Shown: positions 3,105-19,418 of the stretch, piece by piece
How the letters are laid out: each line of letters opens with the position of its first letter
How positions within the stretch are numbered: position 1 is the first letter of the stretch
IMG/VR virus record: IMGVR_UViG_3300034122_002487
Location: 1 to 33,479 of that record
Reading direction: 5' to 3' (one strand)
Length of the DNA: 33,479 bases
From: a virus
Lineage: Duplodnaviria; Caudoviricetes
Program-made: the position numbers and the translations under genes
The notes under the pieces: generated by a model
Seen by the model: the letters and a program-made list of their open reading frames with translations, nothing else
What the model was told of the DNA's origin: nothing
Databases searched by the model: none

Positions 3105-3214
3105 GACTCTTGCATCGAATTCTGTGCGGGCTGCGCCTGCATCTGAGGAGCTCCCGCAAGCGGGGCGCGGGACTGCAGATCTACTGCAAGCGGTGCGGGA
3201 GGTTCCTCGCATGA
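3101..3214 (+). CDS. 37-aa Zn-finger-like peptide (C-x4-H...CxxC), below the ORF-track size cutoff
   Basis: My translation: MRLLHRILCGLRLHLRSSRKRGAGLQIYCKRCGRFLA. AAGGAG RBS, GTGA overlap at the start and ATGA overlap at the end. Confidence 0.7.
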   Translation: MRLLHRILCGLRLHLRSSRKRGAGLQIYCKRCGRFLA

Positions 3215-3864
3215 GCTTCGTGTGCCCTCTGCCACCGGTGAAGGTCCTGGTGCGCCCCGAGTATCTGTATGACTTTGACAAGGACCGCTCGCTCGACGAG
3301 CTGGTCGAAGGCATCTGGGTCAGCGTCAAGGCCATCCGCGGCGAGGCCTTCCGCTTTGAGACCTACCTGCCGCAGTACGGCGCGCTGTACGACAAGCTGC
3401 CCATCAGCGCCTTCTACACGTCGGACTGGGGCCACATCGCCGACGATACCGACCTGAAGCTGGACGTGCTGCAGATCTGGGACGCGCTGAGCTACCACGT
3501 GACGGTGGTCGAGAAGCCGCTGCTCAAGGGCCTGCGCGCTGAGTTCTTCGCCAAGGACAAGAAGACCTACGGTGGCGAGTACATGTTCACGCTGGACACG
3601 TGCAGCCCCGATCCGCGGATCCCAGACTTCACGTTCAGCGAATCGATCGACGAGCACAAGAGCTACAACGTGCTGCGACTGGACCATGGCCAGTTTGCGC
3701 TGCAGCCCAACAACCGCTGCCGGTTCTTCGACCCGGCGTTCAATCCCCAAGAGCTCAAGCTCCCCGACTTCAAGGTGGCCACGCGCAAGTACCGCGTGGA
3801 GCAGCATGCGAAGTGGAGGCTGGGCGACACCACAACGGTGACCTACGACGACAGGAGCGAGTGA
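3211..3864 (+). CDS. Conserved phage protein of unknown function (EHKS...QPNNR family)
   Basis: GGAGG RBS and ATGA overlap fix the start at MSFVCPLPP; motifs EYLYD, LPISAF, YMFTLD, EHKS, QPNNR recalled from aquatic phage proteins. Confidence 0.8.
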   Translation: MSFVCPLPPVKVLVRPEYLYDFDKDRSLDELVEGIWVSVKAIRGEAFRFETYLPQYGALYDKLPISAFYTSDWGHIADDTDLKLDVLQIWDALSYHVTVVEKPLLKGLRAEFFAKDKKTYGGEYMFTLDTCSPDPRIPDFTFSESIDEHKSYNVLRLDHGQFALQPNNRCRFFDPAFNPQELKLPDFKVATRKYRVEQHAKWRLGDTTTVTYDDRSE

Positions 3865-4036: not shown

Positions 4037-5074
4037 TCAGTCGAGCATATCGGCGATCTCGGAGGGCAGCGGGTTGTAGTAGTGCTTGAGCGATTGCAGG
4101 TTCTTGTGACCCGTGGCCGCTGACAGCACCAGCACGTTGGGCAGCTTCTTGGCGAGCCGGGTCGTGCCTTCGTGCCGGCTGTCGTAGAAGCGCAGGTCGG
4201 CGTTTTTCAGGCCAGCCTTTTCCCGCAGATCGCGGTAGTACGCGCCGATCGTGGCTTCGCCCACGGGGATGATCTTGTCGCTGGCCTGCTTGCCCTGGCA
4301 GAGCTTTTTGAACAGCTCGGTGGCCCGTTTGTTTAGGGGCACGTTGCGCCCGACCGTGTCTTTGTGTGCGTCGTTTTTGGTTTTGTGCACCCGCACATAG
4401 CGGTCTCGCTCATGGAAGTCGCGCACTGTCAGTGAGCACAGCTCCTTGGGGCGGATGGCGCATTCGCAGGCGATGAGCAGCGCCCAGACCACGTAGTCCT
4501 TGCCGATCTGCGGCAACGTGTTCTCGTCAAACTTGGCGGCCTCGAGAACCGCATCGAGCTCGTCTTGGTGCCAGCGGCGAAACCGGTAGCGCATGACGCC
4601 CTTGGGTCGGCTGACTAGAGACACGGGGTTGTAGGGCAGCGGCATCGACCATTCCTGGATCGCCTGCGTGAAGACGCTGGAGATCAGGTTCATTTCGCGG
4701 TTGACGGTGGCTGGCGAGACCTCGGTGAGGCGCTGGTCGCGCCAGTCGCGCACGTCCTCGAACTTGAGTTGGTCCAGTCGGCGCTTGGTGAACTCGGCGT
4801 CCAGGATCAGGCGGTTGAGCCGGGTGGACTCCCACTTGCCGCCGTCGCGGTTGGGGCAGACCTCATCGCGAAACCTTTGAAAGATTTCCCCGACCGAGTG
4901 TTCGCGCGCTTTGGCGAGGTTGCGAAACTTGTTGTTGTCCATTGAGGACTCGATCTCGCGCGCCCATGCATCGGCGTCGATTTTGAGGTCGAAGATTTTT
5001 GACTGAACGGGGTACCCGATGCGGCGTACCACGACCCTCCAGCCACCCAATTTGTAGGGACGAATTGAGGCCAA
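4037..5074 (-). CDS. int: Tyrosine recombinase / phage integrase
   Basis: Catalytic residues R (CAIRPKE), K (KTKN), YDSRHE, GHK, Y (HYYNP); N-terminal ASIR...WRVVVRRIG arm-binding-like domain. Probable TTG start at 5074 behind AGGAG. Confidence 0.93.
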   Translation of the reverse strand: MASIRPYKLGGWRVVVRRIGYPVQSKIFDLKIDADAWAREIESSMDNNKFRNLAKAREHSVGEIFQRFRDEVCPNRDGGKWESTRLNRLILDAEFTKRRLDQLKFEDVRDWRDQRLTEVSPATVNREMNLISSVFTQAIQEWSMPLPYNPVSLVSRPKGVMRYRFRRWHQDELDAVLEAAKFDENTLPQIGKDYVVWALLIACECAIRPKELCSLTVRDFHERDRYVRVHKTKNDAHKDTVGRNVPLNKRATELFKKLCQGKQASDKIIPVGEATIGAYYRDLREKAGLKNADLRFYDSRHEGTTRLAKKLPNVLVLSAATGHKNLQSLKHYYNPLPSEIADMLD

Positions 5075-5121
5075 CTGACTCTCCTGTACATGGATGTACG
5101 CGGGTGTGCGCCGGTGCTCAA

Positions 5122-5141
5122 TTGCACACGGATTGCACACG
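5122..5141 (+). repeat. Arm-type repeat copy 1 (TTGCACACGGATTGCACACG)
   Basis: Perfect 20-bp match to 5298-5317; itself two TTGCACACG units 11 bp apart. Confidence 0.85.
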
Positions 5142-5392: not shown

Positions 5393-8300
5393 TCAACGCT
5401 CCTCCCCGTCCACGGTCAGCCCTTCGCGCAGCCGGATCCGCTTCTCGCGCTGCAGCTCACGCTGCGCCTCGGCGTTGTCCGGCGTGATCGCCCCGCGCGC
5501 CTCGAGCTGGTTCAACCGCCGGATCTCGGCGTCCAGCTCCCGGATCAGCCGCTTGCGATCCGACTGCTCGATCCGCTCGCTCATCTCCAGGTCGATCGGC
5601 CGCACCTTGACGCCCACCGTCTGCAGCGCCGCCAGCCCCGGCTGCACCGGCAACCCGTCCTTGCCGAACCCGGTGTAGCCCAGCACCGGCTCGCCGGTGA
5701 TGCTGGCGATTGCGTTCAGCGTCCGATCCCAGTGGTAGTTGCCCACCGCCAGGGCGGGCGAGAACTGCCGCCAGAGCCACTCGCCCCGCTTCTCGGCCAG
5801 CTCGCCCTGGGTGTCGCTGCCCTTGGTGACGTCCTTGCCCAGGAACATGTCCCGGTTGGCCATCATGGCCACGAAGGTCGTCAGCAGCGGGCTGGACGGC
5901 GTCAGCGGCTGGAGCATCGCCACGCCCCCGGAGTTGTTGACCGCATCGAGCAGGTCGCCACCAGGGAAGATCTTGCTGACATCCAGGAAGAGCGGCAGGT
6001 TGGTCACGTCGTCCATGCCCAGGCGGATCGCCTTGGGGGTCCCGAGGGTAGCACTCATCCCCTTCATCCACTCCGGCAGGTTCGCCCGCTCCGACTCCTC
6101 CAGCGCCTTGGTCCTGGCGCGGAACGCCGGGTCGGTGATGTAGCGCCGGGCAGCCTCCAGCCAGTCGTCGTCCTCACCCTCGCCCGCGGCCTGGGCCATG
6201 GCGTAGAAGAGCGCGTTCACGCCGTACAGGATCCCGGCCGGGGCGGCGAAGCGCCAGGGCTTCTCCAGCGCCGTGCTGGCCAGGGCCGGCACCACCTTGT
6301 AGGTGTAGCTGAAGAAGGGCAGCGCCGTGTCGCGGATGATGCGCGCCGTCTTGGGCAGGTCGTCGTAGGTGAAGATAAACCGCTGGGCGTACTCGACCGC
6401 GTCGTCGGACTCCAGGCCCCGCTTGCGCGCGTCGCGGTAGATCAGGTACCGGAAGAACTGGTCCTCGGCGTCGTACGCCTTGCCCAGGGGCTTGTTGAGG
6501 AAGAAGGACAGCGCGTTCCAGACGGTGTTGCCCGCCTTGGCGATCTTGCCCTCGCTTGCACCGGCCAGCATCTTGAGCTGGTCAGGCATGTCCTTGAGCA
6601 GATCGGCCCGGCTGAACGTGCCGAGGAACAGGCCCGCGTCCTGCGCCTCCTTGACCATCGGGTCGTTGCGCATCAGGTCGCGCACCGCGCCCGCGTACTT
6701 GCCCGCGTCCCAGTAGGACACGCCGGCGAAGTGCGCCATGGTCAGGTTCGACAAGATGTTGTTGGCGTGCGAGACCGGGTTCAAGACCGTCTTGCCTTCC
6801 TTCCACTTGGACAGGGCGGACAGGTACATCTTGACGATCTCGTTCTGCATCGTGCCGTCGTAGGCCGACAGGTGATCCATCACCTCCTTGGGCACGTACA
6901 TGCCAGCCAGGGCCCCGTAGCGCCGGGCCTGCGTGTCGGTGACCTTGGTATCGGGCACCTGGACGAAGCCTTCGCGCTCCGTGCGGCTGGCCACGTCCTG
7001 GGCGATGCGCTCGTACATCCGGCCCAGCGCCACGTCGCGCTGGGTGGCGTTGTAGCCCATCACGAACCGGAACATCGCGTCGCGGATCTCGCCCATCTCC
7101 TCGCGCTCCTCGCGCGTGAAGTCACGCCAGACCTGGGTCTCGCGGTCCTTGGCCGGGTTGAACCCGGGGTCACGCTGCTCCCAGCCCTCGGCCGTCCACT
7201 GGTCGAGCTCGTCGACCGGGATGGTCTTGAAGATGCCGCGGCTCTTGAGGTTGCTGCCCCTGATGCCCTGCATCGTGCGGGGCTTGCGCACCAGCTCCAG
7301 CGCGGCGCGCGCCCAGCCCTGGACTTCACCCTTAAGCTTGCTCTCGTAGAAGCGCGGCAGGTACTTGCCCTCCCAGCGACCGGCAGCCTCGGGGCTCAGC
7401 ATCCCCAGGCGCACTAGCTCGGCGCTCTGCTCGGACATGATCGTCTGCATGGACGCGGCCAGATCGAGGATCTTCTTGGGCGGTGTGACGCCGGCCTTGA
7501 GCTCGCCCTCGATGACGTCGCTGATCATCTGGCGCTCTTCCTCGGACAGCGTCTTGAGCTTCTCGGCCACGTCGACCGTGAGGTTCTGGGCGCGCTCGAC
7601 CTCGACCTTCATCTTGCGCATGGCGCGGCCGAGCTCGGTGCTGATCGGCTTCAAGCCGACCTTGTCGAGCACGGCGTTGGCCACGTCGGCGGCGTAGCGG
7701 TAGGCCACCGCCCCTGGTGCGAACTGCGCGCGGCCGGTCTCATCGCGCCAGCCGGTGTCGCGCTGGCGCGAAAGCTGGACGTTGCCTTCGCTGTCGAGGA
7801 ACGAAGCCTTGATGCTGTCTGCAATCTCGGCGTCGTCCATGCCCGTGCTGAACTTGCCCACGCGGCTGAGCCGCGACGGCTGACCCGTGGCAGCCTCGAT
7901 CAGCTTGCCGTCGAACAGCACCTCGGTGGTCAGCGCGCGGCTGTTGCGGTTTGCGCGCTCTCCGGTATCGGGGTACTTCTTCTCCAGCGCGTCGTAGGCG
8001 GCGCGGCGCTCGGGCCCTGCGGGCAATGCGTTGGCTGCGCGGAAGTCGTCGCGCCTTGCCCGGTCGGCGTCGGACAGAAGATCCTCATCCCACACGCGCC
8101 CGGCGAAGTAGACCTCCCCAGGTTCCAGGGTGAGTTTGAACACCTGCAGCGCGGTCTCGTCAGTCGGCGCGTACTTGGTGTACGCCCGCGCCATTTGAAC
8201 CGCCGTGTCCACATCATCGCTGCCGCGAATCAGGTAGCCGTAGAAGCCTTTGCCCAGCGGACGCAGTCCACCGGGTTCGCCCTGACCGAAGAACCGGGGG

Positions 8301-11300
8301 TTGATCTCGTCGAAATCGCTGCCGCCGTGGACCAGCAAGAACACGCGCTGGCGACTGGCGGTGATGGATGGGTTGGCCGGGTCGAACGCGCCGCTGTTGC
8401 CGGTGGCGGACTTGATCTGATCGGGGCGGAAGGCGATGTAGATACCGTCGCCAAGATCAACACCATCAAAACCCTCATCTTGAAGAAGTTTTCGGTGTCT
8501 TGCGTCGTGGTCGGCCCAACCTGTTTTTTCGCTCTGCGCCTCGGCAATCTTGCGTGTCCTCAAATAATCTCGACGCGATGCCGGGTTCTGAATCGAAAGG
8601 TACAGCGGGTAAACAAGAGGAGAGTCCGTTCCGCGAGCCGAGATACCCGCATACTCGGACGCAACCCCCGGGTCAGAGGCGCTCCAAATTCCAAGCGCCT
8701 TGTTTGGGTTGTACTTGAACTCAGAAAAGTCTTTCCCGCTGCCGTGGTACACCACCATCGGCTCACCGTTGGCATCCACAACCTTGCTGTCGCCGAACCA
8801 CCGCTTGAACTCAGGCGTATCGGTCTGACGCTGGCGGCTGGCAGTGATCTTCGCCTCGCCATCGTTGGCGGGCTTGGCTGCGATCGGGATCGTCTTCTTG
8901 CCACCGCCGGCCAGGGCCTTCTGGGTCTTGATGACCAGGGTGTCGCCGTCGCGGTCGGGGTCGTAGTCGAGGAAGAAGCCGTTGTGCTTGACCGCGGCGT
9001 CCTCGGGCTTGGTGGTCTTGTCCTTGTTGGTCAGGCCGACGATCATGCCCTGGTTGAGCTCGTTGCCGGGCTGGCCGGGCTTGGGATCCAGGAAGCGCGC
9101 GTCGTAGTTGTCGCCGTCCCAGACCTGGAACCGCTGGCCGGTACGCTCGTCCAGGATGAACTTGGGCATGGCGGTGCGGCTGGTGAACGCCATCGCGACG
9201 TTCATGCCCTTGGTCAGACGGTCGTCGACCATCTTGTCCCAGTTGCTTTCCTTGTTCACCACGACCTTGCCGTTGACGATCTGGCTGGCGCCCGTCGAGC
9301 TGTAGGTCAGGTGGTGGTTCGGGGCGATCGAGTTGCTGGGCAGCTTCGTGTAGTCATAGAACATCACGCCGGGGAAGGCGTCGATGATTCCCTCGAAGGT
9401 CTGCGGCCGGAAGTCGCTCGTGACGTTCAGGCGCACCGTGGGCTGGTAGTCCTCCTTGGCCGCGGCGCGCTGGAACTTCTCGATCTCGTTGTGCAGCACG
9501 ATCGCGAAGTCCTCGGGGTGCTGCACCAGGGCCTCGGTCTTGAGGTACTGGGCCAGACGCGGGCCGGACTTGAACTGACCCTCGCCACCGTAGAGCAGGT
9601 TCTGGCCGGACGTCTCGCCCAGGCACAGGCCTTCGCAGATCGCTGAGTTCGGGCAGGTCGAGAGGTTCTTCTCGTTGATCTTCTGGGCGCTGGCGAGACC
9701 CAGGCCCATCGACATCACGTCCTTGCCGTTGTAGTTGTTGAGCCCGTAGCCGCCGGTGTTTGTCTTCTCGAGCTTGCCGTTGACGCCAAGCAGCGTGCCG
9801 ACGTTGTGCTCGTCCTTGAGCACTTGGCGCGCTTGCTCCAGGCGAGCCTTGCGTGCCGCTCCGTCGAGTTGCAGGTACTGGTTGAGCGAATCGCCGATGC
9901 GTTGCTGCAGGTCGGTGAGCTTGGTCTCCTTCGACAGCGCGCGGGTGCGCGGCGCATCGAGGGTGAACAGCTTGGTCATCTTCGACTTGTAGGCCTGACC
10001 TTCGGCGACCGGGATGAAGAAGTCCTTGCGACCGTCCGGGTACTCCTTGTCCAGGTGCAGCAGGCGCGGGTCGACCTGGAGCAGCACGTTCGCGCCGTCC
10101 ATCTGGTGGTCAATGTTGCCCGGCTCGTTCATGACCTTCGGCCCGCTGGACTCGTTGGTCAGGTAGATGCGGTTGGCGTCGGGCGTCGCACCGGTGAGCT
10201 TCTTCGTGCGAGCCAGTTCGCGCGCCACGGCGTTGCTCGTCGGGAAGTACAGCGTGACGGTGCCGTTCTTGTTGAGCGGCAGGCCGGTAAGCGGATCGTT
10301 AGCCCGGCCCTTGGCGAACTCCTTCTCGCCGTAGGGACGCTTGACCGAGAACTTGGTGCCCTCGCCGTCCAACGGCACCGAGATCTGGCCCTCGGAGGTG
10401 TACGGCGCCATGCCGGTACGCTCCTCGTAGACCTCAGCCTTCTTGACGTCGGCGGCGTCGGACTTCTGCCAGTCGCGCTGCGCGCTCTTCGTGATCCGCG
10501 GATCGCTGGTGGGCCGCTCGTTGAAGACGGACTTCACCTGCTCCGGCCGGAAGGCCATCACCTCGATGAAGCCACCAGGGCCACCGCGCTCGACGACACC
10601 GTCATAGCCTTCGGCGATGAGCTGGTCGGTGATGCGCTGGCTCTCCTCGGGCGTGCGCTTGGCACGGCCGAATCGCTCGACGAAATCGTCGGCGTCGATC
10701 GGGTTCTTCACCGATGCGAAGACCGGGTACATCTGACCCTTCTCGCCCTTGGTGTAGCCCTCGGAGCGGCGGGCCGAGCTGCTCATGTAGATGCCGGTGC
10801 CGTACAGACCCGGCTCGGTGGTGAACGACTCGACGCCCTCGGCCGGCAGGCTCTCGCCGCGCATGCCGCGGTACAGCATCACCGGCTTGCCGGTGGCCGT
10901 GCGGACTTGGCTGTCCTTGTAGAACTCCTTGAACTCCGGGGTCTCGGTCTGGCGCTGCGCGCTCAGGCGCAGCTTGTCCAGGCCGAACTCGCGCTCGACC
11001 TCGGAGACCGGCGCACGCGCGGGGGCGGCGGCTGGAGCTGCAGCCGGTGTAGCACCCGGTGCTACAGCCGCGGCCGGCGCGGCCTGCTCGGCCTTGGCCA
11101 CCTCCATCTGAAGGCGCGCGGCCGGCTCGCGTTGCTGCTGGGCGTAGGTGACCAGCGCCTGCTTCACGGCGGCCTGGATCGCGTTGAGGTCCTTGACCAG
11201 GGCCTCGGTGTCGGTGAATCCGCCCTGCGTGACGGCCTGCTTGAATGCGCGGATCGACTTGTTGATTGCAGCGGCCAAGCGAACGATGATGCCGCGCGCA

Positions 11301-14300
11301 CCTTCCGGGTTCTGCGCAGCGATCTCCTCGAACACTTGCCCCAGGAAGTCGGGGTCCATCAGCACCCGGTTGCCCACCAAGTCGCTGGTGATCTCTTCCA
11401 GGTCCGCGCCCTCGCGATAGTCCTCGGCGCCGTCGCGCAAGTTGCGCTTCACCACGGCCTCGAGCGCCGCGTAGGCCTCGGGGTTTTCCCGCTTGAGCAG
11501 GTGCGTGAGCTCGTGGAAGAACACCGCCAGCGGGGAGGCCTCGGTGCTGGTGTTCACGTAGATCGACTGGTTGTCGCCGGCCTGCACGAAGCCGTCGGCG
11601 CGCAGCGTCGGCGACTCGAAGACGACGAGCCGCTTGCCGAAGATCCGCGCTACCTGCTTGAGCAGGCGACCGGTGTTGCCCATGCGCGAGGCGTCGACGA
11701 CCGTCACCTCGTGCTTGACCGGCTGGCCTTGGGCGTCGTTGCCGTCGTTGACGGTGAAAGTGGCGCCGGGCACCGGGTCGCGCTTGCTGGAGAACTTCGC
11801 GCCGGTCGTGATGATCATGCCGCCGCTGGGCTGAGCCAGTCGGCCTTCGTTCGCTGCGGCTTCCAGGCGAGCCTGGGCGTCGCCCTCAACGGCGGCGGGC
11901 GCCGCACCGCGCTGCTCCTGCTTACGCGCAAGCAGCTCGATCTGCGCACTGCGGCGCGTGACCGCCGGCAGGTTCTCGTTGCCAGCGGTCGTGCGCAGCT
12001 GCTCGTCAGTCAGCGAGCTCGCCGGCACGCCACCGACCCTCGCCGGGCGCGGCAGGTTGTTGCCGGTGCGGATGGCCTCATTGCGGCCCAGGAATGCACT
12101 GCGCGGCTCCAGGCCCGTCTCGACCTGAATGCCCTCGGCCTGCGCGGCTGGGGCCTGGGCAGCTGCCCGCTCCACGCGGGCGGTGGCACCCTCGACCGTC
12201 AGGTCCTGCTCGGTCAGCGGCCGGTTGCCGTACAGGCTCACGGCCTCGGCCAGCACCGGGCTCACGCCGCGCGAGCGCAGCTCCTCGACCTGCACGCCGG
12301 TGGGCGCCGCCTCGGGCGTGGCCTGGGCGGCTGCGCTCTCGATGCGCTCCTGGCTGGACGCGGGCAGTGCGCGCTGGGCCTCCAGGGCCTGCGTCACGTC
12401 CGCATCCGAAATGCGCCCGGCTTCGTAGTCTTGAACGAAGGCGCGTGCAGCAGGCGTGTTGGTCTCGCGCATCTGCTGCACGAAGGTCTGCTCGATGCTG
12501 ACCTCCGGCGCTGCGGAGGGCTGCTCGGCCTTTCGGCCCTGCAGGTCAGGCGTGTACTCGAACGCGGGTGCAGCGGGCTGCTGACGCGTGGACTCGCGAG
12601 CACCGAACCCCAGGCCTGCTTCCTGACCCACGGCCACACCGGTGGCAGCGGTGAGCTGCTCGTCAGTCGAGGCGGGCCGCCCCAGGCTGGGGTCGATGCT
12701 GTTGAACGGCTGGCCCATGTTGGCCGCGCGCAGCAGCTCGGCCTCGTAGGGCGAGGCCACGCCACCGCGAGCCTCGATGGCCGCCATCGTGCGGCTGACC
12801 ATGTCCTGGCGCGGCGCGTCTTCGGCGCGGCGCTGCTGCTCTTGCCCGGCCAGGGCGGCAGACTCGATGCGGCTCTGCGCAGCCGCGGGCGACGGCGCGG
12901 GGGCGGCGGTGTTGAGCTCGAGGTCGGCGGCCTGCAGCGGCATCTGCGCGCGGGCGATCGCCAGCTTGCCAGCCTCCGACGGGTGCGAAACGATCTGCAG
13001 CGTCAGCGGCTCGGCGAGCTGATCGCGCAGCACGGCCAGACGCTGCCGGGCCTCCATCGGCTCCATCGGCTTGAGGTCGACGAACTGCTCGGCGGTGCGC
13101 GGCGCAGCCGGCGGCAGCGCGGCCTGGGCTTGCTCGAGCGCCATGCGCTGGTCGAACCCGGTGCCAGCCTGATTGGCCTGACCGACCAGCTCCGCGTTGC
13201 GGTCAGCCATCTGGCGCAGTGCCGGGATGCTGGTCAGCGGCGCGGGCGCAGGAGTGGCCAGCGGCACGTTGGCCACCTGCTCTGCGATCGAGACTGCCTC
13301 GTCGATGGTGCGCGCCTTGGTGATGTCGCTGGGCTGGACGTACGCGGTAACGGCCGCCTCGAGCTCAGGCAACGTCGCGGCGAGCTCACGCTGCGCCGCG
13401 GGCGTGCCGGGGGCCGCGGGCGGCGGCGCGTCGGCGCGTTGCTGCGACATGGCCTGCGTGAGGATGCCGGGCTCGTTGAGTCGGTTGGCGACGTAGAGTT
13501 CGGGCAGCGACTGCGACAGACCGGCCACACCTTCCAGCACGGCCTCCGTCGGCGAGAACTCGCCGGTGGCCACGAACTCGCCCAGGCCTTCGCCCAGACC
13601 TTCGCCCACCGACTGCAGCCCCACGGCGCTGGCGCCACGGCCGGTACGTCGGGCCAGGGTGTTGGTGGTCTCGAAGGCCGTCTTCTGTGCGGACGTGACC
13701 GACGCGCGCAGCGCCGGGTCCAGCAGGCCCTCACGCGCCATGGCCTCGATGGTCGCCTTCTCGACGGCCTCAACAGTGGCCTTCTGGCTGGCGCCCTTGC
13801 TGGCCGACACGGCCGCCTGTTGCGCTTCGCGGATGCTCTGCGCTGCGCGGGCAGCGTCGATGCCGGCGTCCTGCAGCGTGCGGACCGTGGCCTGCTCGAC
13901 GGCACGGCCGGCTGCGCCCAGCACGAACTTGCTGGCACCCAGGGTGACAGCGTCGACGCCGGTGATCACGGCGCCCTTGGTCGCGCCCTCACGCAGCGCC
14001 GCACTGCGGTCCTCAGGGGTGAACGTGCCCTGGCCCGCCTTCTCGATCGCCTTGCCACCGGTTTCCAGCAGCGTGTTGGCCCCGAACAGGCCAGCCAGGA
14101 AACCGCCGACACCGCCGATGGCCGCGCCGACCGGGCCGCCCACGAGCGCGCCGCCCGCTGCACCAGCCTTCGCACCGGCAAAACCGGCGCCCAGGGACAA
14201 GGCAGCGTTGGGTGCCTGTTCGGCGATGAGCTGCACGCCACCGGACGGATTGGCCGCCACGGCACCTGCGACGTTCTTGATGCCCTGGACGATCGTGTCG

Positions 14301-14614
14301 TCGCCGGTCTTCTTGCGCGCCTGCAGGTCGGCCTTCAGGGCCTTGAGCGCGTCAGCTTCAGACCCAAGCTCTAAGTCGCGCGCCTCTCGCGCACGCTCGA
14401 CAACACTGGCCCGGTCATCACCGAAGGTGCTTATCGCAGCACGCGCTGAGCCAACCGTTTTCTTAGCACCTTCAACAACAGCCGAACCGATGTCGGTGAT
14501 GTCTTCCATCAGCGACGTCTTCCTCGGCTTCTCCTGCTTTTTTCCGAACATCTCCTCGTCACTGAGGTAGCTGCCCGTACCGAAGATCTCGTCGTCGCTG
14601 AGGTACTTGCTCAT
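5393..14614 (-). CDS. 3073-aa polyvalent internal virion/ejection protein (metallopeptidase, several ART-like domains, GP88-like domain, helical C-terminal region)
   Basis: Last gene of the ejection cluster; Gly-zipper hydrophobic segments near the N-terminus; HELTH at 11501-11515; ART-PolyVal-type motifs; CPNSAICEGLC, RLNVTSD and FYDYTK. Confidence 0.9.
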   Translation of the reverse strand: MSKYLSDDEIFGTGSYLSDEEMFGKKQEKPRKTSLMEDITDIGSAVVEGAKKTVGSARAAISTFGDDRASVVERAREARDLELGSEADALKALKADLQARKKTGDDTIVQGIKNVAGAVAANPSGGVQLIAEQAPNAALSLGAGFAGAKAGAAGGALVGGPVGAAIGGVGGFLAGLFGANTLLETGGKAIEKAGQGTFTPEDRSAALREGATKGAVITGVDAVTLGASKFVLGAAGRAVEQATVRTLQDAGIDAARAAQSIREAQQAAVSASKGASQKATVEAVEKATIEAMAREGLLDPALRASVTSAQKTAFETTNTLARRTGRGASAVGLQSVGEGLGEGLGEFVATGEFSPTEAVLEGVAGLSQSLPELYVANRLNEPGILTQAMSQQRADAPPPAAPGTPAAQRELAATLPELEAAVTAYVQPSDITKARTIDEAVSIAEQVANVPLATPAPAPLTSIPALRQMADRNAELVGQANQAGTGFDQRMALEQAQAALPPAAPRTAEQFVDLKPMEPMEARQRLAVLRDQLAEPLTLQIVSHPSEAGKLAIARAQMPLQAADLELNTAAPAPSPAAAQSRIESAALAGQEQQRRAEDAPRQDMVSRTMAAIEARGGVASPYEAELLRAANMGQPFNSIDPSLGRPASTDEQLTAATGVAVGQEAGLGFGARESTRQQPAAPAFEYTPDLQGRKAEQPSAAPEVSIEQTFVQQMRETNTPAARAFVQDYEAGRISDADVTQALEAQRALPASSQERIESAAAQATPEAAPTGVQVEELRSRGVSPVLAEAVSLYGNRPLTEQDLTVEGATARVERAAAQAPAAQAEGIQVETGLEPRSAFLGRNEAIRTGNNLPRPARVGGVPASSLTDEQLRTTAGNENLPAVTRRSAQIELLARKQEQRGAAPAAVEGDAQARLEAAANEGRLAQPSGGMIITTGAKFSSKRDPVPGATFTVNDGNDAQGQPVKHEVTVVDASRMGNTGRLLKQVARIFGKRLVVFESPTLRADGFVQAGDNQSIYVNTSTEASPLAVFFHELTHLLKRENPEAYAALEAVVKRNLRDGAEDYREGADLEEITSDLVGNRVLMDPDFLGQVFEEIAAQNPEGARGIIVRLAAAINKSIRAFKQAVTQGGFTDTEALVKDLNAIQAAVKQALVTYAQQQREPAARLQMEVAKAEQAAPAAAVAPGATPAAAPAAAPARAPVSEVEREFGLDKLRLSAQRQTETPEFKEFYKDSQVRTATGKPVMLYRGMRGESLPAEGVESFTTEPGLYGTGIYMSSSARRSEGYTKGEKGQMYPVFASVKNPIDADDFVERFGRAKRTPEESQRITDQLIAEGYDGVVERGGPGGFIEVMAFRPEQVKSVFNERPTSDPRITKSAQRDWQKSDAADVKKAEVYEERTGMAPYTSEGQISVPLDGEGTKFSVKRPYGEKEFAKGRANDPLTGLPLNKNGTVTLYFPTSNAVARELARTKKLTGATPDANRIYLTNESSGPKVMNEPGNIDHQMDGANVLLQVDPRLLHLDKEYPDGRKDFFIPVAEGQAYKSKMTKLFTLDAPRTRALSKETKLTDLQQRIGDSLNQYLQLDGAARKARLEQARQVLKDEHNVGTLLGVNGKLEKTNTGGYGLNNYNGKDVMSMGLGLASAQKINEKNLSTCPNSAICEGLCLGETSGQNLLYGGEGQFKSGPRLAQYLKTEALVQHPEDFAIVLHNEIEKFQRAAAKEDYQPTVRLNVTSDFRPQTFEGIIDAFPGVMFYDYTKLPSNSIAPNHHLTYSSTGASQIVNGKVVVNKESNWDKMVDDRLTKGMNVAMAFTSRTAMPKFILDERTGQRFQVWDGDNYDARFLDPKPGQPGNELNQGMIVGLTNKDKTTKPEDAAVKHNGFFLDYDPDRDGDTLVIKTQKALAGGGKKTIPIAAKPANDGEAKITASRQRQTDTPEFKRWFGDSKVVDANGEPMVVYHGSGKDFSEFKYNPNKALGIWSASDPGVASEYAGISARGTDSPLVYPLYLSIQNPASRRDYLRTRKIAEAQSEKTGWADHDARHRKLLQDEGFDGVDLGDGIYIAFRPDQIKSATGNSGAFDPANPSITASRQRVFLLVHGGSDFDEINPRFFGQGEPGGLRPLGKGFYGYLIRGSDDVDTAVQMARAYTKYAPTDETALQVFKLTLEPGEVYFAGRVWDEDLLSDADRARRDDFRAANALPAGPERRAAYDALEKKYPDTGERANRNSRALTTEVLFDGKLIEAATGQPSRLSRVGKFSTGMDDAEIADSIKASFLDSEGNVQLSRQRDTGWRDETGRAQFAPGAVAYRYAADVANAVLDKVGLKPISTELGRAMRKMKVEVERAQNLTVDVAEKLKTLSEEERQMISDVIEGELKAGVTPPKKILDLAASMQTIMSEQSAELVRLGMLSPEAAGRWEGKYLPRFYESKLKGEVQGWARAALELVRKPRTMQGIRGSNLKSRGIFKTIPVDELDQWTAEGWEQRDPGFNPAKDRETQVWRDFTREEREEMGEIRDAMFRFVMGYNATQRDVALGRMYERIAQDVASRTEREGFVQVPDTKVTDTQARRYGALAGMYVPKEVMDHLSAYDGTMQNEIVKMYLSALSKWKEGKTVLNPVSHANNILSNLTMAHFAGVSYWDAGKYAGAVRDLMRNDPMVKEAQDAGLFLGTFSRADLLKDMPDQLKMLAGASEGKIAKAGNTVWNALSFFLNKPLGKAYDAEDQFFRYLIYRDARKRGLESDDAVEYAQRFIFTYDDLPKTARIIRDTALPFFSYTYKVVPALASTALEKPWRFAAPAGILYGVNALFYAMAQAAGEGEDDDWLEAARRYITDPAFRARTKALEESERANLPEWMKGMSATLGTPKAIRLGMDDVTNLPLFLDVSKIFPGGDLLDAVNNSGGVAMLQPLTPSSPLLTTFVAMMANRDMFLGKDVTKGSDTQGELAEKRGEWLWRQFSPALAVGNYHWDRTLNAIASITGEPVLGYTGFGKDGLPVQPGLAALQTVGVKVRPIDLEMSERIEQSDRKRLIRELDAEIRRLNQLEARGAITPDNAEAQRELQREKRIRLREGLTVDGEER

Positions 14615-16993: not shown

Positions 16994-17442
16994 GTCAGAG
17001 CCTTTCGTACGTATGAGAGGTTGATCGACTCGCGGTCGAAGCCCACTCGCTTGAGAAACTTGACCAGCCTTGGATCAGACCCGGGCTCGAGCTCGAGCAC
17101 GGCGACCTTGATGGCTGACCGACCTTTGACCCAGTGCGCGAGCTCTCGCATCAGTGGCAGACCAGCACCAGGGGTACGCGTGTAGTACAGGAGGACGGAG
17201 CACTGGAGTTTGTCGAACCAGAACGACGGCTGGACGCACGCAGCGACCGACGCCACGACCTTGCCGTCCTGCTCAGCAACCCACATGAAGTGGGCGGGGT
17301 TGAGGCAGGTCCTGGCGGTCTCGGCCATGGACTCGCGGTTGATCTTGACGGGCAGCGGGTCGCGAGATACCGACTCCACCGCGATGTCCACGATCGCGGG
17401 TACGTCATCCAGGCGGGCCTTGCGACAGACGATCTTGGTCAT
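16990..17442 (-). CDS. GNAT-fold acetyltransferase-like protein
   Basis: CRKARLDDVPAIVDI, WVAEQDGKVVA, GAGLPLMREL, FLKRVGF. Confidence 0.75.
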   Translation of the reverse strand: MTKIVCRKARLDDVPAIVDIAVESVSRDPLPVKINRESMAETARTCLNPAHFMWVAEQDGKVVASVAACVQPSFWFDKLQCSVLLYYTRTPGAGLPLMRELAHWVKGRSAIKVAVLELEPGSDPRLVKFLKRVGFDRESINLSYVRKALT

Positions 17443-19346
17443 CCGCCGCTCACGCTGCCGCCGTCACCACCGCTGGCCAGCGAGTAGTACCCGTTGTTGT
17501 CGAAGTACGACTGCTGCGCCATCCGCCGCGAGATGAGCCCTTGGCCCTGCCGGCCTTCGTTCTCGCCGTAGTTGTCGTAGTGGAACTGCGCGAAGTCCGC
17601 GAGCGACATGTCCGTCTGGTTGTTCAGCCAGTAGTTCAGGACGTCCGGGTTTGCTTGCAGGTACGCCCGGGTCGACCCTCCTGTCGTCGCCAACGCTTGA
17701 GTGGCCGGGTCTGCCGCAGGTGCAGGCGCCGGCGCGGGAGTGGGCGCAGGAGCGGGTGCGGGCGCAGGCGCAGGAGCGGGTGCAGGAGCGGGTGCAGCCG
17801 CAGGCGGTCTGCTCGTGCCACCGCCTGCGCCAGGGCCCGGGTTCACGACTCCAGGCGTCCCGCCCGGTGCGGCGATCGTCGGCAGCGCCGTGTTGTAGAA
17901 CGTCGAGCCCCACTGCATCGTGGCGTTTGACGTCGCGATCACGTTGTCAATCGCACCGCGCTTGGCCTCCGGCGACAGGTTCGGATCGGCCTGGATTGCG
18001 TTGATCGAGTTCAACGTGCCGGTGGCGACGTTGGCCGCGAAGCCTCGGCCGACGTTGGCGGTGTTGATCTCGTTCTGCAGGTTGATCAGGTTGCGCTGGT
18101 TGTCGCGGTCCAGCTGCGACTGCGTAGCCTGGAACTGCTGGTTCGCGGTCTGCAGCGTCTTGTTGGCCTCGATCTGCTTGTCGGCGATCTGCGTCTGTTG
18201 AGCACGATCCTGTTCGCGCTGCCCCTGCTCGAAGGTGCGGTTGGCTGCGTTCTCTCCGCGGGTGAACTCTTGCTGCTGGCTCTGCAGCGTGCGCTGCTGC
18301 GCACGATCCAATTCGTTCTGTGCTGTCTGGAAACCTTGGCGCGCTGTCTCGAGCGCCTGATTGGCGGCGATGCTCTTGTCGGCCAGGGCGACCTGCGTCG
18401 CACGCTCGAGCTCGTTCTGTGCCGACTGGAACGACTGTTGCGCTTGCTGCAACAGCTTGGCCTGCTCGCGGTCCAGATTCGCCTGAGCTGCCTGGAACTG
18501 CTGCTGGGCTTGCTGCAGGGCTTGATTGGCCGCGATGGTCTTGTCCGCCAGGGCGACCTGCTGCGCACGATCCAGGTTGGACTGCGCTGCCTGGAACGTC
18601 TGCTGCGCCGCAAGGATCTTCTCCTGCTGCGCGCGCTCGAGCGCGGACTGCTCACGGGTGAACTGCTGCTGGTTTTCCTGCAGCGCCTTCTGGTTGACCC
18701 GGTTGAGTTCGTTCTGCGCACTCTCAAAGTTGAACTGCGCAGTCTGCAGCGTCTTCTGGGCCTCGATGCTCTTGTCGGTCTCAGCCGCACGCGCTGCACG
18801 ATCCAGGGATGCCTGCGCCGCCTGGAAGTCCTGGGTCGCCTTGTTCTGTTCAGACGTGAACCTCTGAGAGCCCAGGCGCTCGCTGGTCGTGAAGCTGCGG
18901 GACTTGTCCGCCTGCTCAGCGGTGAAAGACTGTTCGCCACGCTGCAAGCCGAACTTGTTCTGCTCGGCCGCGTTGAAGATGCCGGCTTCATTGACCGCAC
19001 CCATGTTGGCCAGGGAACGCTTGTTGAACGTATCGGCGTCCTGCTGCGCGATCGGCGTGACGCGGTCGATCATCGCGGCCACCGCCGCGCCCTGCGCCAT
19101 CGAGCTGTTCACCAGCCCGCGGGCGTTCATGTCCTGCATCGCGGTCGCGCGAGCACGGCGCAGCAGCGGGCTGTCTTTGGCCAACAGTGAGTCGATCTGC
19201 CCAGCGGCCGTTTCCGTCGCGCGGTTGACTTCGCGTTGCTGCGGCGTGAACTGGGCCGCCGCGCCCGAGGTTGCGTTGGTCATGGCTCCGCCGATGATCC
19301 CGCCATTGTTGCTGCCGACATCAAACGGATTCGCTGCTGTAGCCAT
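17439..19346 (-). CDS. Gln-rich long coiled-coil internal virion/ejection protein (635 aa)
   Basis: GGAG RBS before MATAANPF; MNARGLVNSSMA motif; 11-residue repeats; Pro-Ala linker; C-terminal YLQANPDV module. Confidence 0.8.
   Translation of the reverse strand: MATAANPFDVGSNNGGIIGGAMTNATSGAAAQFTPQQREVNRATETAAGQIDSLLAKDSPLLRRARATAMQDMNARGLVNSSMAQGAAVAAMIDRVTPIAQQDADTFNKRSLANMGAVNEAGIFNAAEQNKFGLQRGEQSFTAEQADKSRSFTTSERLGSQRFTSEQNKATQDFQAAQASLDRAARAAETDKSIEAQKTLQTAQFNFESAQNELNRVNQKALQENQQQFTREQSALERAQQEKILAAQQTFQAAQSNLDRAQQVALADKTIAANQALQQAQQQFQAAQANLDREQAKLLQQAQQSFQSAQNELERATQVALADKSIAANQALETARQGFQTAQNELDRAQQRTLQSQQQEFTRGENAANRTFEQGQREQDRAQQTQIADKQIEANKTLQTANQQFQATQSQLDRDNQRNLINLQNEINTANVGRGFAANVATGTLNSINAIQADPNLSPEAKRGAIDNVIATSNATMQWGSTFYNTALPTIAAPGGTPGVVNPGPGAGGGTSRPPAAAPAPAPAPAPAPAPAPAPTPAPAPAPAADPATQALATTGGSTRAYLQANPDVLNYWLNNQTDMSLADFAQFHYDNYGENEGRQGQGLISRRMAQQSYFDNNGYYSLASGGDGGSVSGG
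17715..17805. repeat. Hexanucleotide-based repeat encoding (AP)n linker
   Basis: Degenerate GCAGGN/GCGGGT units; protein APAPAPAPAP... Confidence 0.8.
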
Positions 19347-19360
19347 GTCTGCTCCAAAAG

Positions 19361-19386
19361 AAAAAGCCGCCCAAAAGGCGGCTTTT
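19361..19386. terminator. Bidirectional intrinsic terminator
   Basis: AAAAAGCCGCC-caaaa-GGCGGCTTTT. Confidence 0.8.
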
Positions 19387-19418
19387 CGCGGGCGCACTGG
19401 CCCCACGAAGATTTTAGG

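Follow-up and report, generated by a model that had tools for sequence, protein, structure and literature searches.

What does a short peptide carrying a Ser and an Arg do when it recurs between the modules of a giant phage protein, and what reads it? The question is raised by a caudoviricete sequence of 33,479 nucleotides, IMG/VR record IMGVR_UViG_3300034122_002487 (positions 1 to 33,479; this whole stretch is called the window below). Its open reading frame (ORF) 5393-14614 on the minus strand encodes a 3,073-amino-acid protein, P0001, which combines two ART-PolyVal domains, a GP88 domain, a zincin-like HExxH domain and modules of unknown kind. Its cassettes are exchanged exactly at the recurrent peptide, and among the relatives compared the form of the peptide tracks the lineage of the zincin-like domain. 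The original prediction for this locus held that the protein is ejected with the phage DNA and cuts itself at these peptides into separate effectors. From the sequences compared here, we consider it probable that packaging and ejection leave the chain whole and that its own zincin then cuts it at the peptides.

The junction motif in P0001

Seven peptides of the form S-x-[QK]-R, centered on S942, S1218, S1377, S1423, S1926, S2087 and S2282 of P0001, lie where the original prediction had placed them; its coordinates are exact for the four-residue core but do not span the seven residues quoted with each. The two zincin landmarks that it named, HELTH at 11501-11515 and EEITSD at 11381-11398, were read correctly. 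The whole of P0001 contains eight S-x-[QK]-R peptides against 1.14 expected, and amino acids 936-2290 contain seven against 0.55; neither count was reached in any of 5,000 shuffles, for a pattern that was picked after the data had been seen. The eighth peptide, SQQR at amino acids 390-393, had been overlooked and may be a real site, as relatives have QEMSRRR, QEMSRSR or SAYSARR at this place. The segments of the protein, from its N-terminus to its C-terminus, are as follows.

11801-14614, minus strand: N-terminal region, amino acids 1-938; no Pfam or PHROG match
13436-13447, minus strand: possible eighth junction site SQQR (pattern match; S-x-x-R in relatives)
11780-11800, minus strand: junction AKFSSKR (S942), directly before the zincin (motif pattern)
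11081-11779, minus strand: zincin-like HExxH domain, about amino acids 946-1178 (conserved ligands, predicted fold order)
10952-10972, minus strand: junction LRLSAQR (S1218) (motif pattern)
10496-10951, minus strand: cassette, ART-PolyVal copy 1 (PF18760, E 4.6e-16)
10475-10495, minus strand: junction ITKSAQR (S1377) (motif pattern; counterpart ITKSTQR in the relative P0161)
10358-10474, minus strand: short piece of about 40 amino acids that moves with the GP88 cassette (comparison of relatives)
10337-10357, minus strand: junction TKFSVKR (S1423), conserved within the cassette, no swap seen (motif, relatives)
8849-10336, minus strand: cassette, unknown domain plus GP88 domain (PF17338, E 9e-23)
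8828-8848, minus strand: junction ITASRQR (S1926), crossover on the left of the exchanged cassette (end of the BLASTn match, 8829)
8366-8827, minus strand: cassette, ART-PolyVal copy 2, replaced in the related loci L061 and L004 (PF18760, E 1.3e-25)
8345-8365, minus strand: junction ITASRQR (S2087) (motif pattern)
7781-8344, minus strand: cassette, unknown 190-amino-acid module, replaced in L061 and L004 (no Pfam match)
7760-7780, minus strand: junction VQLSRQR (S2282), crossover on the right of the exchanged cassette (restart of the BLASTn match, 7768)
5393-7759, minus strand: conserved C-terminal region, 788 amino acids (no Pfam match; 339 relatives)

The motifs had been placed at domain boundaries, and two kinds of evidence agree. 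First, each Pfam envelope (ART-PolyVal 1241-1369 and 1947-2077, GP88 1626-1844) falls inside a single motif-bounded segment. Second, in an AlphaFold2 model from 36 rows, which covers amino acids 925-1235 and thus two of the seven junctions, S942 and S1218 lie outside the folded domain; the block with S942 has a mean predicted local distance difference test score (pLDDT) of 54, and the stretch with S1218 scores below 50.

Both ART-PolyVal modules clear the PF18760 cut-off of 31.2 bits, with 60 and 91 bits, and are ART-fold modules with putative ADP-ribosylation activity. At the candidate catalytic position in the last ART strand copy 1 has Glu and copy 2 has Ile; Glu is found in 27 of 162 modules. 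For the 190-amino-acid module, Atlas gives a weak ART-like lead, at rank 12 with a score of 0.90, in a cluster of which 24% is PF18760 and with recognition under the threshold; BLASTP against ART copy 2 returned no significant match. The only three Cys residues of P0001 (1654, 1660 and 1664) are all in the GP88 module, where they form a C-x5-C-x3-C array (window 9623-9655, minus strand), a candidate site for a metal or an Fe-S cluster of an injected enzyme.

Exchange of cassettes at the motif

The exchange is seen at base resolution in the loci L061 (encoding protein P0152) and L004, whose flanking DNA is 92-98% identical to that of the window. Where the window has ART copy 2 and the 190-amino-acid module, the cassettes of these loci are unrelated and about 130 and 570 amino acids long. 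In both loci the BLASTn match breaks off at 8829 and is taken up again at 7768, within the SRQR codons of S1926 and S2282. In P0161 an extra module of about 130 amino acids stands directly after ITKSTQR, its counterpart of the S1377 motif. The check proposed with the original prediction, whether homologues gain or lose modules exactly at the motif, is answered in the affirmative for the cassettes exchanged in L061 and L004. Its broader statement that the motifs mark swap points holds for the crossovers at S1926 and S2282 and for module edges in relatives, but does not extend to S1423, at which no swap was seen in the relatives compared, the 42 amino acids before it moving with the GP88 cassette.

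Tags of this kind also precede the modules of P0001 where these recur in other proteins. The ART module of copy 1 begins after VLASRQR in P0161, and the 190-amino-acid module, which follows S2087 in P0001, follows IAASRQR in P0160 and VKFSAER in P0044. For a family-wide view, two sets of relatives were used: set A, with 187 proteins including P0001, came from searches with the zincin (150 relatives, the best of 310, plus further ones), and set 2 was found through the C-terminal region (120 listed of 339 relatives, 118 of them new). When the sequences that follow the zincin were compared by all-versus-all BLAST, 710 clustered alignment ends resulted. A de novo profile of these ends, built without giving it any motif, has the form D-[VI]-R-F-S-x-x-R; Ser is at -3 in 21% (3.7 times background) and Arg at 0 in 25% (3.5 times). 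A fixed pattern, hydrophobic-x-x-S-x-x-R, lies near 164 of 704 alignment ends against 24 at random positions, and near 294 of 907 alignment starts against 45. The window and P0152 were excluded from this test, and the pattern was written after relatives had been seen, so that the test is not fully blind. Most alignment ends are not at a motif; many of these are assumed to be internal losses of similarity. Two other approaches were set aside: a position-specific scoring matrix test (709 matches against 110 shuffled), which is partly circular because the matrix was trained on alignment ends, and an enumeration of gapped 3-mers per protein, in which composition noise swamped the signal.

These comparisons also correct the form of the motif. 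The Ser and Arg of the original pattern stand, but the true motif is wider (hydrophobic-x-x-S-x-x-R), and Q or K at +2 is no family feature; across the family this residue is A in 22%, Q in 17%, R in 15%, E in 12% and K in 12%, Q/K being a local flavor. In 118 full-length proteins the motif occurs 3.0 times per 1,000 amino acids in the cassette region and 4.8 times just before the zincin. The corresponding densities are 0.10 for the zincin interior, 0.36 for the N-terminal region and 0.63 for the final 750 amino acids. The motif stands directly before the zincin in 56 of these 118.

The zincin-like domain and the form of the tag

The domain behind the first junction has the metal-ligand residues expected of a zincin. 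Of 183 aligned rows, chosen by zincin similarity, 182 conserve each of H1034, E1035, H1038, the third ligand E1074 and D1078. AlphaFold2 predicts a folded domain at about amino acids 945-1178 with three strands, an HExxH helix (1028-1043) and a following helix that carries the third-ligand Glu (1072-1081), and this order of elements agrees with the MPTase core of polyvalent proteins (Iyer et al., 2017; PMC5512222). The kept metal ligands and general base point to protease activity. There is no MPTase-PolyVal Pfam match to this zincin, and cultured phages gave no match to it.

The form of the tag was compared between lineages after one shared module, at 185 ART-PolyVal C-terminal ends in 156 proteins. 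In zincin clade A, to which P0001 belongs, 108 of 110 ends have Arg at +3 relative to Ser; the figures are 0 of 21 for clade c0, 1 of 42 for split second halves and 0 of 12 for other clades, related proteins that share labels being included in the counts. In clade c0 the tag is S-x-R (for example S-N-R). Over whole cassette regions the same contrast is found: in clade A (160 proteins) S-x-x-R occurs 649 times against 146 in shuffled sequence and S-x-R 198 times against 146, whereas in c0 (34 proteins) S-x-x-R occurs 26 times against 34 and S-x-R 159 times against 34. Read by eye, other lineages have tags such as FSED, IDFA, INA and YAS. The ART modules themselves are mixed with respect to the tags; by nearest-neighbor identity, 28 of 124 have their nearest neighbor in the other tag group, and one pair that is 80% identical ends in ITKSTSR and ILKSNRA. 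The chimera P0022 joins an N-terminal region nearest c0 (55% over 524 amino acids) and a set-2 C-terminus to a clade-A zincin, and its tags are S-x-x-R. P0001 itself joins a C-terminus of c0/split type to clade-A tags. Among the proteins compared, the form of the tag tracks the zincin lineage, and the zincin is probably the reader of the junction code. A within-clade relation between the residues at +1/+2 and zincin tree distance (+1 identity falling from 0.48 to 0.14) was not counted as co-evolution, since kin share labels.

Set-2 proteins such as P0255, P0257, P0266 and P0283 have the same C-terminal region and zincins of other types, with PF06167 or PF07737 matches; some have two zincins per chain, and the tags of these proteins differ (INA, YAS, IEP).

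Probable cleavage by the resident zincin

In the reading that we prefer, P0001 would be packaged whole in the virion and ejected with the phage DNA. Its own zincin-like domain would then cut at the hydrophobic-x-x-Ser-x-x-Arg peptides, and the modules would be freed as separate early effectors: the zincin itself, two ART-fold modules, the GP88 module and the unknown module, whose effector activity we infer. A more general form of this idea, which we hold to be evenly poised, is that protease codes are lineage-specific: each zincin lineage would read its own peptide (S-x-x-R here; elsewhere S-N-R, F-S-E-D, I-N-A or Y-A-S), a cassette that comes in would take on the tag of the zincin already present, and crossovers would fall in these very codons.

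Several points weigh against cleavage by the resident zincin. We infer cleavage at the tags, no cut having been observed, and N4 vRNAP, ArdC and TraC1 bear such a domain, yet are packaged or transferred uncut (Iyer et al., 2017; PMC5512222). Library matches to the zincin are weak (E 0.1-0.6, with M48 peptidase at 0.3 and DUF6782 at 0.1; profile matches to zincins have E 0.3-1.1), and a wide fold search (VIA) listed no zincin, only helical bundles (Z at most 7.8), in a query dominated by its helical C-terminal half, which makes the search uninformative. AlphaFold2 docked neither motif confidently on the zincin (pLDDT about 54 and below 50), and the 3′ end of the extra module of P0161 is without a full motif. 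The clade counts, moreover, include kin that share labels, and zincin clade is confounded with the N-terminal region, whose best match belongs to the same group in 235 of 238 proteins. Finally, P0245 combines a c4-type zincin with a c0 frame and retains S-N-R tags; its N-terminal region is 85% identical to that of P0254, and the two proteins differ in their zincins and agree in their tags. Since relatives of type c4 also use S-x-R and P0245 has a second zincin, this case weakens the link between tag and zincin without breaking it.

The unchanged tag of P0245 after a zincin swap would also be expected if another protease, from a separate phage gene or the host, cut the motif while the zincin acted on host proteins or peptidoglycan. 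The confounding of zincin clade with phage lineage fits this alternative as well, and both targets have been suggested for related domains: a peptidoglycan role for the metallopeptidase of phi24B (bioRxiv 10.64898/2026.04.10.717836), and host targeting as one of several options (Iyer et al., 2017; PMC5512222). In P0022, however, the tag changed together with the zincin while the c0-like ends were retained, and no other protease is annotated in the 33-kb window, outside which the head genes lie. We regard a separate protease as an unlikely explanation.

Split relatives and the integrity of the chain

All ten split loci examined (L005, L006, L008, L011, L013, L015, L016, L017, L020 and L022) have the giant gene in two pieces, and in all ten an ORF of 162-164 amino acids, ferritin-like by eye, lies between the halves (for example L005:6591-7088). 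In nine of them the upstream gene has a zincin, which could act in trans. Where the cut ends were compared, in six split loci, half one ends in KINC[KD] and half two begins with M-x(1-2)-C-T-Y. Terminal Cys residues are found more widely: 69 of the 187 set-A proteins have Cys within the last four residues, and most of these ends are of one of two kinds, a helical ..LLECL[RG]K or ..INC[DK]; 43 set-2 proteins have Cys within the first nine. Examples from the two sets are P0015, P0004 and P0189, and a further one is L043:5294-19351. The terminal Cys may form a disulfide clasp that re-links the split halves. Split halves with Cys at their cut ends suggest that the chain would travel as one piece and be cut after ejection.

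A chain that travels as one piece could also stay whole, the motif being a docking or translocation tag by which modules bind the zincin or the N-terminal region and so are held, folded or threaded through the ejection channel. The uncut packaging of N4 vRNAP is in keeping with this, as are the tracking of the tag with the N-terminal region and the persistence of tags in split second halves without a zincin of their own. Those halves could still be served in trans by the zincin of the upstream gene. The general-base Glu and all metal ligands are strictly kept, and unrelated enzyme modules would gain little by staying joined; we consider a docking role improbable.

Peptide or DNA as the conserved element

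Crossovers at the motif raise the question of whether the peptide or its DNA is under constraint. In 38 motif Ser codons 20 are AGY and 18 are TCN, as in the background, and the codon family differs between two alleles at the same site; the mixed families indicate that selection acts on the peptide. Shufflon- and integron-like cassette arrays have a conserved DNA crossover site at each junction; no such site is found here, and none of the 20 largest DNA repeat families shown joins the seven junctions. At the crossovers 9-14 bases are shared, all in motif codons. Swaps are likely to occur by recombination at these shared bases of the motif codons, and selection would retain the junctions that rebuild a full site.

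The tyrosine integrase gene at 4037-5140 lies on the same strand, directly downstream of the giant gene. A DNA site of this integrase was considered as an origin of the junctions and rejected on the grounds of the mixed Ser codons and the lack of a joining repeat family; the motif is unlikely to be its site. That the motif is a mere scar of recombination, left by DNA microhomology or a neighboring integrase site and devoid of peptide function, would suit the position of the crossovers inside shared motif codons and the adjacent integrase, but is very unlikely in view of Ser codons of both families even at one site, the missing repeat family and the conservation of S1423, where no swap was seen.

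Gene context and the nature of P0001

The minus strand of the window carries a podovirus-type morphogenesis block upstream of the giant ORF, with an SU10 adaptor, tail fiber, lectin-like proteins, endolysin, spanin and a GNAT gene; between the GNAT gene and the giant ORF are ORFs of 225 and 419 amino acids, and downstream of it are the integrase and then DNA polymerase A. In a podovirus, a giant ORF at such a position is likely to encode an ejection protein. A precedent is gp47 of phi24B, a podovirus polyvalent protein of 2,811 amino acids that is present in virions by proteomics and is a proposed ejection protein (bioRxiv 10.64898/2026.04.10.717836). Because of the gene context and this precedent, P0001 is likely to be a virion component that leaves the particle together with the DNA. 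The N-terminal region, amino acids 1-938, is likely to be the packaging or conduit part; its nearest relatives all bear clade-A zincins. The C-terminus gave four matches of 23-24% among cultured phages, all records of Helicobacter pullorum phages.

Other features of the window are noted here. An excisionase-like helix-turn-helix protein is encoded at 2360-2566 and, together with the integrase, suggests a temperate phage. A Gln/Ala-rich repetitive ORF of 655 amino acids (17439-19406, minus strand), upstream of the GNAT gene and without Pfam or PHROG match, is a candidate for a further ejection protein. The 246-amino-acid ORF at 3124-3864 on the plus strand matches phrog_3704 (annotated ferredoxin, auxiliary metabolic category; E 1e-80).

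Comparison with known systems

In the features that sequence can test, P0001 is a phage polyvalent protein. Like the proteins described under this name (Iyer, Burroughs, Anand, de Souza, and Aravind, 2017; PMC5512222), it is giant and multidomain and has an HExxH+E zincin together with ART-PolyVal; it is encoded among virion genes, its domain make-up varies among relatives, and many of these also carry LPD38, InPase, GNAT or MuF-C. LPD38 is found at the C-terminus of many relatives of the zincin clade, and that of P0001 has no LPD38 match. For polyvalent proteins, release of functional units through cleavage by the MPTase has been proposed, and so has possible recombination of cassettes. Unlike here, no junction motif, exact swap point or covariation of motif and peptidase is found in the available parts of that account: its main text has no occurrence of "linker" or "boundar-" and has "cleavage site" only in a reference, and its supplements could show a motif.

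Other giant ejected proteins resemble P0001 in part. The phi24B preprint, in its available portions, describes neither processing nor a junction motif for gp47 and suggests that the peptidase degrades peptidoglycan. The crAss-like gp65-gp67 and coliphage N4 vRNAP are giant ejected proteins with an HExxH domain, and cleavage of the fused crAss forms has been suggested (PMC13434306; bioRxiv 2020.03.07.982082). Unlike in P0001, the cargo there is an RNA polymerase, and the available parts of these sources contain no mapped cut site. No published account of such a junction code was found in the literature covered, from which subscription journals are mostly absent.

Two further systems offer a parallel for one half of the arrangement each. 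Polymorphic toxins exchange effector cassettes at a short conserved boundary peptide, and viral polyproteins are processed by a protease within the chain. Unlike polymorphic toxins, P0001 swaps several tandem internal cassettes and not one C-terminal toxin.

The motif allows hundreds of giant phage proteins to be divided in silico into effector units, exposing unknown injected enzymes. The hypothesis of 2017 came without predicted cut sites, and P0001 supplies seven or eight exact candidates; E1035 and the clade difference between S-x-x-R and S-x-R, a natural swap of specificity, make self-processing testable. If the preferred reading is true, the zincin would belong to a protease family of new specificity. 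If the more general idea of lineage-specific codes is true, the ejection polyproteins of podophages would be a plug-and-play effector system, with anti-host enzymes to be injected as a library shared across the family and a single short peptide as both their genetic splice joint and the signal for their release. Self-processing of polyvalent proteins has been known as a hypothesis since 2017; what is added here is the junction motif, the exact swap points and the covariation of the tag with the zincin.

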